Of a stretch of DNA of 5,489 nucleotides, positions 2,520-4,465 are shown in pieces. The notes under the pieces were generated by a model. That model worked only from the letters and a program-made list of their open reading frames with translations. It had not been told where the DNA came from and did no database searches. Source of the stretch: Escherichia phage EMCL318; sequence record MG563770.1. One strand, given 5' to 3'. Positions within the stretch are counted from its first letter, which is position 1; every line of letters begins with the position of its first letter. The translations under genes and the position numbers were made by a program.

Positions 2520-2526
2520 TCTTTAA

Positions 2527-2540
2527 GGGGCTTCGGCCCC
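2527..2540 (+). terminator. J-F intergenic stem-loop GGGGC-TTCG-GCCCC (5-bp GC stem, UUCG-type tetraloop), followed by TCTATTT
   Basis: Perfect inverted repeat read from the sequence. It sits at the position of the post-J terminator/mRNA-stabilising hairpin of phiX174-type phages, immediately before the F ribosome-binding site. Confidence 0.5.
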
Positions 2541-2558: not shown

Positions 2559-3839
2559 ATGTCTAACGTACAAACTTCCGCAGAACGTATTCCGCATGAC
2601 CTCTCACATCTGGTCTTCGAAGCTGGTAAAATCGGTCGCCTTAAAACTATCTCTTGGACTCCTGTTGTCGCTGGTGATTCTTACGAAACTGAAATGGTAG
2701 GCGCTATTCGCCTCTCCCCACTCCGTCGTGGTCTGGCTGTCGACTCTCGCGTCGACGTCTTTACTTTCTACATTCCTCATCGTCATGTCTACGGTCAACA
2801 ATGGATTGACTTTATGAAGACTGGCGTTAACGCTACTCCTTTGGCTCCCGTGACTTGTGCTTCTGGCTGGGACTCTGCTGCCTATCTTGGCACTATCCCG
2901 TCAACTAACTTGAAGGTTCCTAAATTCCTTCATCAATCTTATCTGAACATTTACAACAACTACTTTAAGCCGCCGTGGTCTAATGACCTCACTTACGCTA
3001 ACCCATCTAATATGCCTGCTGAGGATTACAAATGGGGCGTTCGTGTCGCTAACTTAAAATCTATCTGGACCGCGCCCCTTCCTCCTGATTCATTAACTAA
3101 GCAGGATATGACCACTGGCGCTACTACTATCGATATTATGGGCCTACAAGCTGCCTATGCTAAACTCCATACTGAACAGGAACGTGACTACTTCATGACT
3201 CGCTACCGCGATATTATGAAAGACTTTGGCGGTCACACCTCTTATGACGGTGATAACCGTCCTCTGCTCCTGATGCGCTCTGAATTTTGGGCCTCTGGCT
3301 ATGACGTCGACGGTACTGACCAAACTTCATTGGGTCAGTTCTCTGGTCGCGTCCAACAAACTTTTAATCATAAAGTGCCTCGCTTCTATGTTCCTGAGCA
3401 TGGCGTAATTATGACTTTATCTGTTACTCGCTTCCCTCCTACTCATGAAATGGAAATGCACTATCTCGTCGGTAAGGAATCTCTAACTTACACTGATATT
3501 GCCTGTGACCCTGCTCTTATGGCTAACCTGCCTCCACGTGAAATTGAGGTAAAAGACCTCTTCCACTCTGCTGGCACTGGTAAATTCAAAATTGCCGAAG
3601 GTCAATGGTATCGTACTCAACCTGACCGCGTTGCCTTCCCTTATAACGCTCTCGACGGCTTCCCTTTCTACTCTAAACTGCCGTCTAATGATATTCTCGA
3701 ACGTGTACTTGTTCACACTGATAACTACGATGAAATATTCCAGTCTATGCAACTTGTACACTGGAATATGCAAACTAAATTTAACACTACTGTATATCGT
3801 CATATGCCTACTACTCGCGATGGCATCATGACTTCTTAA
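2559..3839 (+). CDS. F: Major capsid protein F, 426 aa
   Basis: Extensive match to recalled phiX174 F (MSN.QT.AER.PHDLSHL, GRL.TIS.TPV.AGDS, RLSPLRRGLA.DS.VD.FTFY.PHRHVYG.QWI.FMK.GVNATPL, YLNIYNNYFK.PW, IWTAPLPP, IDIMGLQAAYA.LHT.QERDYFM.RY, DNRPLL.MRS, WASGYDVDGTDQTSLGQFSGRVQQT, FKIAEGQWYR, VYR..PTTRD.IMTS). AAGGA at 2548-2552 lies 6 nt before the ATG. Confidence 0.95.
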   Translation: MSNVQTSAERIPHDLSHLVFEAGKIGRLKTISWTPVVAGDSYETEMVGAIRLSPLRRGLAVDSRVDVFTFYIPHRHVYGQQWIDFMKTGVNATPLAPVTCASGWDSAAYLGTIPSTNLKVPKFLHQSYLNIYNNYFKPPWSNDLTYANPSNMPAEDYKWGVRVANLKSIWTAPLPPDSLTKQDMTTGATTIDIMGLQAAYAKLHTEQERDYFMTRYRDIMKDFGGHTSYDGDNRPLLLMRSEFWASGYDVDGTDQTSLGQFSGRVQQTFNHKVPRFYVPEHGVIMTLSVTRFPPTHEMEMHYLVGKESLTYTDIACDPALMANLPPREIEVKDLFHSAGTGKFKIAEGQWYRTQPDRVAFPYNALDGFPFYSKLPSNDILERVLVHTDNYDEIFQSMQLVHWNMQTKFNTTVYRHMPTTRDGIMTS

Positions 3840-3848
3840 AACAAAACG

Positions 3849-3913
3849 TTGAACGGGTACAAATTTTAATTTGTGCCTGTTCAAGGTTGAACAAGCGAAG
3901 CGCGTTAGCTAAC
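3849..3913 (+). other. F-G intergenic structured region: long imperfect hairpin (3849-3884), GCGAAGC mini-hairpin motif (3895-3901) and 10-bp palindrome GTTAGCTAAC (3904-3913); candidate complementary-strand origin and/or post-F terminator
   Basis: Inverted repeats read directly from the sequence: arms TTGAACGGGTACAAATT and AATTTGTGCCTGTTCAA give 15 Watson-Crick pairs plus 2 G:T pairs. In G4-type phages the primase-dependent complementary-strand origin lies in the F-G intergenic region. Confidence 0.45.
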
Positions 3914-3931
3914 TTACTTAAGGAAATTCTC

Positions 3932-4465
3932 ATGTTTCAAACTTATCTCTCTAAACATAATTCTCCGTTAACTTCTCAGTCTATTACTGCTACAAAAACA
4001 CCTGCGGCTGCTGCTCCGATTATTTCTACACCGGAGCTTAGCCGCTCTACTATTTTCGCTGGCTTAACTCTGACTGCTGCCACTGCTCATTCTGGTGTCG
4101 CTCATGTCGTTCGTATTGACGAAACCAATCCTACTGACAATCAGGTTTTATCGGTCGCCGCTTCTTTATCTGGCGTACCGTCTGATGCTATTGCTATTGC
4201 TATTCGCTTTGAAGTCGCTGACGGTACCGTCCCTACTGCTCTCCCTGCTCTCTACTCTGCTTATCCGGTGGAATTCTTCACTTCTGGCGCTGCTCTGTCT
4301 TGTAAGGATGCCGTATCTATTCCGACGCATCCTGTTACTGCTGGTAATGATGTATATGCTGGTATTCTTATCTGGTCCAAATCTTGGTCCGCTGGTGTCG
4401 TCTCCGGCCTCTTATCTGTTAATCAGGTAAATCGTGAAACTACCGTACTCCAACCTCTTAAATAA
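3932..4465 (+). CDS. G: Major spike protein G, 177 aa
   Basis: From ATG 3932 the translation MFQTYLSKHNSP… with C-terminus …LSVNQVNRETTVLQPLK matches recalled phiX174 G (MFQTFISRHNS…LVSLNQVIKEI.CLQPLK), and the central region keeps RFE, VPT.LP.AY and GN.VY.G motifs. AAGGA at 3920-3924 lies 7 nt upstream. The ORF-track start at 3887 is a TTG extension. Confidence 0.9.
   Translation: MFQTYLSKHNSPLTSQSITATKTPAAAAPIISTPELSRSTIFAGLTLTAATAHSGVAHVVRIDETNPTDNQVLSVAASLSGVPSDAIAIAIRFEVADGTVPTALPALYSAYPVEFFTSGAALSCKDAVSIPTHPVTAGNDVYAGILIWSKSWSAGVVSGLLSVNQVNRETTVLQPLK

Follow-up and report, generated by a model that had tools for sequence, protein, structure and literature searches.

A candidate phiX174-type primosome assembly site between genes F and G of the G4-like phage EMCL318, and the recurrence of its 19-nt core beside hairpins in other mobile DNA

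The window analysed here is the complete circular genome (5489 nt; sequence record MG563770.1) of Escherichia phage EMCL318, a G4-like microvirus (Bullavirinae, genus Gequatrovirus), and the element in question is the 92-nt spacer between its genes F and G. We consider this spacer to be a probable phiX174-type (n'/PriA-dependent) primosome assembly site (PAS) on the packaged plus strand, and we put the probability of this reading at about 0.72. The initial annotation of the spacer had proposed a candidate complementary-strand origin of the G4 type, recognised by host primase. What survived of that proposal is a conserved, structured plus-strand element at the position where complementary-strand synthesis starts in Bullavirinae; the G4-type, primase-only identity did not survive. 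As a complementary-strand start signal the proposal thus appears right in kind and wrong in type, and the element is best read as a further phiX174-type PAS, ordinary in mechanism, within a G4-like genome.

Blastn searches with the 92-nt spacer returned identical sequences (100%) in phages ID18 and WA14 and ~78-80% identity in ID2, ID204, FL68/76, Lilledu, Lilleput, Lilleto, SECphi17, MG1 and Salmonella phage PJNS002. Despite the G4-like genes of the window, the core of the spacer also matched positions 2308-2371 of phiX174, within that phage's own F-G spacer, at ~80% over 64-66 nt (E 9e-7). A profile of phiX-type spacers (nhmmer) recovered ID18, ID2, Lilledu, PJNS002 and phiX174 at E 1e-23 to 1e-26 (4e-24 for ID18 and 9e-24 for phiX174) and gave no match in G4, WA3, WA6 or alpha3. 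The spacers share one layout, in which AACG is followed by a variable stem, the apex AAATTTTAATTT, the returning stem, a conserved block and the Shine-Dalgarno sequence of gene G; across the phiX-type spacers the block reads GGTTGA(A/C)CAAGCG(C)AAGCGCG(G/T)TAG(C/G). Judged by sequence, the window spacer is homologous to that of phiX174, which it resembles in map position, strand, the AAATTTTAATTT apex, the near-invariant GGTTGAMCAAGCGAAGCGCGKTAG directly after the hairpin and the ribosome-binding site of gene G downstream. The hairpins agree in length as well: phiX174 2308-2351 folds as a 44-nt hairpin, and the hairpin of the window is also exactly 44 nt. In phiX174 the effector of n' (PriA) is reportedly a 55-nt F-G fragment that contains the 44-nt hairpin, which Shlomai and Kornberg are said to have defined in 1980. 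According to reviews, PriA binds a hairpin PAS on phiX174 DNA while the viral strand is being converted to its replicative form, and assembly of the PriA-PriB-DnaT-DnaB/C-DnaG primosome is nucleated there. The spacer and its flanks are organised as follows.

2559-3839, plus strand: gene F, in agreement with the WA14/ID18 annotation
3840-3931, viral plus strand: F-G intergenic spacer, with the whole element inside it
3845-3888, plus strand: 44-nt hairpin by folding, whose 16-bp core (3849-3884) closes on a TTTA loop and is extended by an outer AAC/GTT helix
3861-3872, plus strand: apex AAATTTTAATTT, four A-T pairs and the TTTA loop, identical in six of six distinct Bullavirinae hairpin types
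3885-3909, plus strand: near-invariant single-stranded block GGTTGAACAAGCGAAGCGCGTTAGC, conserved from phiX174 to the ID2 and ID18 lineages
3891-3909, plus strand: 19-nt core fitting MCAAGCGAAGCGCGKTAGS, inside the 3885-3909 block
3895-3901, plus strand: GCGAAGC, a mini-hairpin sequence of the GCGNAGC class that occurs once in the genome
3902-3909, plus strand: GCGTTAGC, by direct reading a second mini-hairpin sequence, of the GCGNNAGC class
3904-3913, plus strand: GTTAGCTAAC, a lineage-specific palindrome in the sequence
3920-3924, plus strand: AAGGA, read directly as the gene G Shine-Dalgarno sequence, with 7 nt between it and the start ATG (3932)
3932-4465, plus strand: gene G, in agreement with the WA14/ID18 annotation

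The boundaries of the spacer (3839/3932), taken from the initial annotation, match those annotated in WA14 and ID18. The hairpin it placed at 3849-3884 is exact in its coordinates and formally contains 15 Watson-Crick and 2 G:T pairs. Pairing of the innermost T3865:A3868 would leave a 2-nt loop; the real structure is therefore 16 bp with the TTTA loop. GCGAAGC and the palindrome were likewise found where they had been reported, and GCGTTAGC, directly 3' of GCGAAGC, had been overlooked. [quoted passage not shown] The significance of the palindrome is doubtful: it appears as GTTAG-N4-CTAAC, with a 4-nt insert, in ID2, Lilledu, Lilleput and SECphi17, carries one mismatch in ID204 and is absent from PJNS002 and phiX174. 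The spacer doubles as the carrier of the gene G ribosome-binding site, with AAGGA or TAGGAG at the equivalent position in all compared spacers.

Folding of 3840-3931 as single-stranded DNA, a check proposed with the initial annotation, gave -16.7 kcal/mol for the plus strand compared with -8.4 +/- 2.1 kcal/mol for dinucleotide shuffles (z = -3.9), and none of 200 shuffles folded as well. The complementary strand reached only -10.0 kcal/mol (z = -0.95), no better than chance, because the G:T pairs turn into A.C mismatches. The excess over shuffled sequences together with the weak complementary fold shows that the structure is real, non-random and specific to the plus strand. No Rfam 15 covariance model matched the window with E <= 1, and at gathering thresholds no Rfam family covered hairpin plus motif in 12 + 5 + 2 related loci; the matches found in those loci (RNAI, one tRNA and EFASI) lay outside the element.

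The hairpin also bears the mark of selection. We aligned six distinct hairpin types (window/ID18, phiX174, PJNS002, locus L227, ID2 and Lilleto), a small sample of related sequences. Across the 19-pair hairpin 96.5% of alignment cells are paired; 11 of the 19 pairs have changed on both sides in a compensatory manner and the other 8 are invariant. None of 500 shuffles matched any of the observed covariation measures, and sliding the 3' partner by 1-3 columns lowered pairing to only 36-58%. Such compensation at over half of the stem pairs provides strong comparative evidence for selection on the hairpin. Seven alignment cells are G:T pairs, workable on the plus strand only, which together with the weak minus-strand fold indicates a plus-strand function. 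One member of the alignment, L227, is a 2.6-kb contig of a Clostridia metagenome-assembled genome (SAAW01000050.1), in which a phiX174-like hairpin and block lie at ~940-1020 on the minus strand. Its hairpin has compensatory stem changes of its own, and the locus suggests a cassette gained by transfer or a phiX174-group relative that has yet to be described.

The window element also departs from the phiX174 PAS. Its spacer has 92 nt compared with 110 nt in phiX174, the first ~17-20 nt of the phiX174 spacer being missing, and it is surrounded by G4-like genes. Compensated replacements affect many pairs of the stem, Watson-Crick pairs take the place of two internal phiX174 mismatches in the window, and GAAGCGG in the 5' arm of phiX174 reads GAACGGG. 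The laboratory-evolved phiX174 lines AF299303 (5339 nt) and AF299306 (5368 nt) have lost the first 20-21 nt of their spacer, the part that is missing from the window spacer, and keep the hairpin and the conserved block.

A G4-type origin, at which DnaG, acting alone, recognises the stem-loops of SSB-coated DNA and makes a single primer at a fixed position, is extremely unlikely for this spacer. The location suits it, since the element lies on the viral strand in the intergenic F-G spacer, as in G4, in a phage that is G4-like in its genes; as in G4 it is a structured single-stranded DNA element, and a GCGNAGC/GCGNNAGC mini-hairpin sequence is also found at the hairpin I tip of G4, St-1 and alpha3. 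The sequences themselves do not correspond. The G4 F-G spacer is 136 nt long and folds into three stem-loops, compared with one long hairpin here; its last stem-loop, GGACGGCGAAAGCCGCCGTCC, is followed by CTACTG, and the start site of G4 lies in CCCTACTG, which has no counterpart in the window. Priming in G4 reportedly starts at CTACTG, and this site and the primer sequence are said to come from Fiddes et al. and Bouche et al., both in 1978. Alignment of the two F-G regions (MAFFT) yielded nothing meaningful, an outcome that the initial annotation had itself named as counting against a G4-type origin: similarity between G4 and the window ends at the F stop codon and restarts at the gene G ribosome-binding site. 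WA3 and WA6 have the same spacer as G4. In alpha3 a related 135-nt sequence lies in the G-H spacer, and the F-G spacer is only 33 nt. An nhmmer origin profile built from G4, WA3, WA6 and the alpha3 G-H sequence found its own four genomes at E = 1e-36 to 1e-45; across the circularised window its best E was 2, so that there is no G4-type origin anywhere in it, and nothing in the spacer can be aligned with the G4 origin or with the G-H relatives of alpha3, St-1 and phiK. No CTG occurs in the single-stranded DNA 3' of the hairpin, the sole CTG of the spacer (3877-3879) being in the hairpin 3' arm. Moreover, the homologue of the window spacer is that of phiX174, the classic phage that is not primable by primase alone. 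The initial annotation had further described the spacer as the least protein-constrained part of the genome. It is instead identical in WA14 and ID18 despite 1.5-2.5% genome divergence, although identity of 92 nt across three genomes is not significant alone.

If the spacer acts as a phiX174-type PAS, the entering single strand would be coated by SSB, while the 44-nt hairpin (3845-3888) and the GCGAAGC-GCGTTAGC block (3895-3909) would stay structured or free of SSB. We infer that PriA would bind the hairpin/block region, where PriB and DnaT would join it, and that synthesis would depend on the primosome. At the stage of the PriA-PriB-DnaT complex DnaB would be loaded; DnaG would then lay primers while the primosome travels, and Pol III would complete the replicative form. 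Second-strand synthesis in EMCL318 would in that case need PriA, PriB, DnaT, DnaB and DnaC like phiX174, rather than primase alone like G4, and the host requirements of the phage are predicted to differ from those implied by its G4-like name. A literature search on G4-like phages with intergenic origins returned nothing relevant.

Within Gequatrovirus the F-G spacer thus holds one of two cassettes, which were mutually exclusive by profile search. The phiX-type site is found in ID18, WA14 and the window and in the group of ID2, ID204, FL and Lille phages; the G4-type origin was verified in G4, WA3 and WA6. Judged from their genome lengths, ID8, ID11, ID12, NC2, NC10, NC13 and WA5 are probably G4-type too. 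The following spacers were contrasted with window 3840-3931.

Locus L001, 3884-4019: F-G spacer of G4, with the G4-type origin
Locus L007, 3847-3982: G4-type spacer
Locus L008, 3836-3971: G4-type spacer
Locus L011, 4960-5094: relative of the G4-type cassette, in the alpha3 G-H spacer

The breakpoints of the cassettes are the F stop codon and the gene G ribosome-binding site. phiX174 shares both site and position, and the G4-type relative sits elsewhere (alpha3 G-H); in the simplest reading the phiX-type site would be ancestral and would have been replaced in the G4 sublineage. One genus offers, in a single spacer, two unrelated origin cassettes and a clean natural swap of a replication module with the neighbouring genes unchanged.

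The conserved block is not confined to the phiX174 group. A stretch of the phiX174 spacer has a perfect match (24 of 24 nt) in non-coding DNA of an unrelated Microviridae genome of 4.6 kb from Ciona gut, which led us to search public collections for the 19-nt core MCAAGCGAAGCGCGKTAGS. In this gokushovirus-like genome (MH572435.1, locus L137) the large non-coding region carries a tandem duplication of ~127 nt; positions 2769-2792 and 2896-2919 are each identical over 24 nt to phiX174 2350-2373 (TTGACCAAGCGAAGCGCGGTAGGT), and further AAGCGAAGCG-like repeats lie at ~3055-3070. The scan of IMG/VR for MCAAGCGAAGCGCGKTAGS gave 24 contigs, among them four Bullavirinae genomes and 13 contigs of 4.1-4.7 kb with unrelated flanks; loci L137-L159 cover IMG/VR and GenBank Microviridae. 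All four of the 13 that were checked encode Phage_F capsids. In every one of the 13, and in the Ciona-gut genome, the motif lies between genes, on the packaged strand, where essentially all genes are encoded, and in these Microviridae it usually lies 2-3 nt after an unrelated hairpin. GenBank matches comprised records of Gokushovirinae sp., bajarodmic virus and Ciona-gut Microviridae. Seven larger IMG/VR contigs of 5-15 kb (L142, L143, L145, L148, L149, L151 and L153) form a family in which GGCGCGCAAGCGCC is followed by the exact motif and the distance to one end of the contig is constant at ~200-340 nt; this may mark the terminus, or a repeat boundary, in the genome of a phage. A looser IMG/VR pattern, AATTTTAATT...GGTTGAMC, was discarded as its matches were nearly all due to chance.

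In bacteria we scanned one representative genome per species (a 596-Gb collection), for which ~35 matches are expected by chance under uniform base composition. Among the first 120 loci listed, 67 contigs were phiX174 contaminants, and there were 54 other sites, of which about a dozen lie inside genes, have no hairpin and look like chance matches; the rest share the architecture of the phage sites. For 50 non-redundant contexts, compared by paired t-test with random 60-mers of the same loci, the 60 nt upstream of the motif fold with a mean of -12.9 kcal/mol versus -5.2 for the random segments (p = 4e-10), and the 60 nt downstream (-4.4) fold no better than random. In 28 of the 50 a gap of 2-3 nt separates the end of the hairpin from the motif, and the hairpins show no sequence relationship. 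Many sites lie 20-100 nt past a transposase gene, on the same strand and before the right inverted repeat of an insertion sequence (IS), and multi-copy elements occur in Geobacillus, Parageobacillus, Sporosarcina, Alteribacillus, Peribacillus and Nitrosomonas. The mobile elements with the motif include the following.

IS256 (Transposase_mut), loci L200, L245 and L277: motif on the sense strand
ISL3, loci L167, L202 and L236: motif on the sense strand
IS30-like, locus L171: motif on the sense strand
IS3, loci L184, L219 and L273: motif on the sense strand
ISLre2/UPF0236, locus L256: motif on the sense strand
P4-type integrase, locus L174: motif after the gene, on the sense strand
Mob_Pre gene, locus L193, a small Pseudomonas plasmid contig: motif upstream of the gene

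The IS256 copy at L200 has both terminal inverted repeats and an 8-bp target duplication, with the motif just inside the right repeat. In three other ISLre2 copies (L189, L211 and L249) the motif lies ~100-140 nt upstream of the transposase gene instead.

Close variants of the core, GTTGGACAAGCGAAGCGCGTCAG or GGTTGAACAAGCGCAGCGCGTTAG, were found in ~1460 plasmid records, mostly enterobacterial, including IncX3, Col156 (ColE2-like) and ColRNAI plasmids. The motif directly follows a hairpin in the five plasmids examined (L280, L281, L283, L285 and L193); Lactococcus plasmid pJM4J (L284) has the exact 19-mer and no clear upstream hairpin. As in the window, the Col156, IncX3 and ColRNAI plasmids show a hairpin and then (G)GTTGRACAAGCG(A/C)AGCGCGTYAG, the hairpin sequences being unrelated to that of the window. 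The genes annotated next to the motif are on the other strand in IncX3 (L283) and in the Col156/MOBQ plasmid pChi7122-4 (L280), which favours a DNA-level rather than an mRNA-level signal; in a second Col156/MOBQ plasmid (L285) one small upstream gene is on the motif strand. The classical ssiA (n'-pas) region of pMB1/ColE1, 90-160 nt past the origin, contains a degenerate copy, CCGAGCGCAGCGAGTCAG, on the displaced strand (RNAI-oriented) that matches 12 of 16 core positions, a likeness that seems weak but consistent. When a ColRNAI plasmid is likewise oriented by RNAI, its motif falls upstream of the RNAII promoter and on the other strand, a location that does not fit ssiA. To our knowledge, pMB1/ColE1 is the only one of these plasmid sites that is an experimentally defined PAS. 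A literature search for AAGCGAAGCGCG returned only vectors and an unrelated human promoter study, and no phage, plasmid or IS paper. We also compared the 19-nt motif by inspection with attC sites, Chi sites, DnaA boxes, the CS-6 of ssoA in rolling-circle-replicating plasmids, group IIC intron targets and tRNA-like CCA minihelices, none of which it fitted.

Several points weigh against a PriA-dependent site in the window. PriA is usually described as structure-specific in its recognition of PAS, and sequence homology is therefore no proof that the function is retained. The hexamer AAGCGG is reportedly an n'-site consensus of the 1980s literature; it is present in the 5' arm of phiX174 (GAAGCGG), where the window has GAACGGG, and AAGCGA and AAGCGC are present in the 3' block of the window. 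The coordinates of the phiX174 n' site are as reported, and the 3' block may or may not be part of the functional site. Conservation of the hairpin may also be partly transcriptional, and since the mRNA has plus-strand sense the strand argument cannot separate a DNA from an RNA function. In the strong form of this objection the spacer would be mainly transcriptional, a counterpart of the phiX174 terminator T_F and a 3' stabilising hairpin for F mRNAs that sets the F:G:H ratio, with any replication role secondary or lost. T_F is a weak intrinsic terminator in the phiX174 F-G spacer that blocks 20-40% of transcription. The spacers are equivalent, probably also in their hairpin region, and weak read-through termination would be expected here; the window hairpin lies 9 nt past the F stop codon, in mRNA sense on the viral strand, and the bacterial IS copies have hairpin and motif just past the transposase stop codon on the same strand. 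We nevertheless find this explanation unlikely. The F-G hairpin lacks a T-run and, unlike T_F, the corresponding U-run; a terminator and promoter consensus scan of the whole window did not call it and, of the two hairpins, listed only the one at 34-53 in the H-A spacer. Neither the A/T-only apex nor the invariant, unpaired 25-nt block is a feature of terminators, the motif runs antisense to its annotated neighbours in the IncX3 and pChi7122-4 plasmids, and the phiX174 homologue of the spacer is an experimentally defined PriA site. The two functions are compatible and not mutually exclusive, and by analogy with phiX174 the spacer may also serve as a weak terminator after gene F.

A different objection puts the signal in the 19-nt block rather than in the hairpin, with the block as the key site for a host factor other than PriA (e.g., primase or RNA polymerase) and thus as a third kind of single-strand origin. 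An identical block beside unrelated hairpins in Gammaproteobacteria, Betaproteobacteria, Bacillaceae, Lactococcus and uncultured Microviridae speaks for it, and such invariance of sequence is unexpected if PriA binding is structure-specific. The 55-nt n' effector fragment of phiX174 may end before the block, which would count in the same direction. The block is, however, accompanied by a hairpin, as in known PAS, the ColE1 ssiA region has its degenerate copy, and we know of no candidate factor; a signal of this kind seems very improbable.

The recurrence of the core raises a broader possibility, which we put forward tentatively as somewhat less than an even chance: the arrangement 'variable hairpin, 2-3 nt, (M)CAAGCGAAGCGCGKTAG(S)' may be a portable, sequence-specific single-strand initiation signal. 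Its proposed range takes in Gokushovirinae-like Microviridae, plasmids (mobilisable, conjugative and Mob_Pre), an element with a P4-type integrase and, at their right ends, IS256, ISL3, IS30, IS3 and one ISLre2 copy, in Proteobacteria, Bacillaceae and Lactococcus. Common to these contexts is that DNA synthesis has to be started on a strand that is displaced or single. In such a module the invariant tandem mini-hairpin (GCGAAGC plus GCGNNAGC) would keep SSB off and offer a landing site to PriA or another universal replication factor. IS3, IS30, IS256 and ISL3 transpose by copy-out-paste-in, which needs replication of the element by the host, and there the module would recruit the primosome. The link between the IS motif and primosome loading is speculation, and a search for literature on PriA with insertion sequences returned nothing relevant. 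The recurrence of the 19-nt core beside hairpins across Microviridae, plasmids and insertion sequences may be new, although the older literature on single-strand initiation (ssi) sites may already describe part of the consensus. If the module is real, the view that primosome assembly sites lack a consensus needs revision, a concrete consensus becomes available for asking what PriA recognises in a PAS, and sequence could be used to annotate the complementary-strand origins of uncultured Microviridae, of plasmids and of insertion sequences. In importance this wider recurrence outweighs the phage-specific result.

The remainder of the window conforms to its G4-like classification. Over its full length it is 98.5% identical to WA14, 97.5% to ID18 and ~83% to G4; EMCL318 was published as 99% identical to WA14 and 98% to ID18 (PMC6316680). 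The gene order, A, A*, B, K, C, D, E, J, F, G, H, is that of the WA14/ID18 annotation. Gene F is 81% identical to that of G4 and 68% to that of phiX174, and gene A is 85% identical to that of G4; over genes F and A the window lies at similar distances from ID2 (84-85%) and G4 (81-85%). A 5580-nt IMG/VR contig (L018) matches the genome, its spacer differing at two positions, both outside the hairpin. In the H-A spacer a canonical terminator hairpin, GCCTCC...GGAGGC at 34-53, is followed by TTTT; it overlaps a long open reading frame that runs from 32, gene A being annotated from 62 by analogy with WA14. The J-F spacer contains, at window positions 2526-2539, GGGGCTTCGGCCCC, which is conserved with phiX174.

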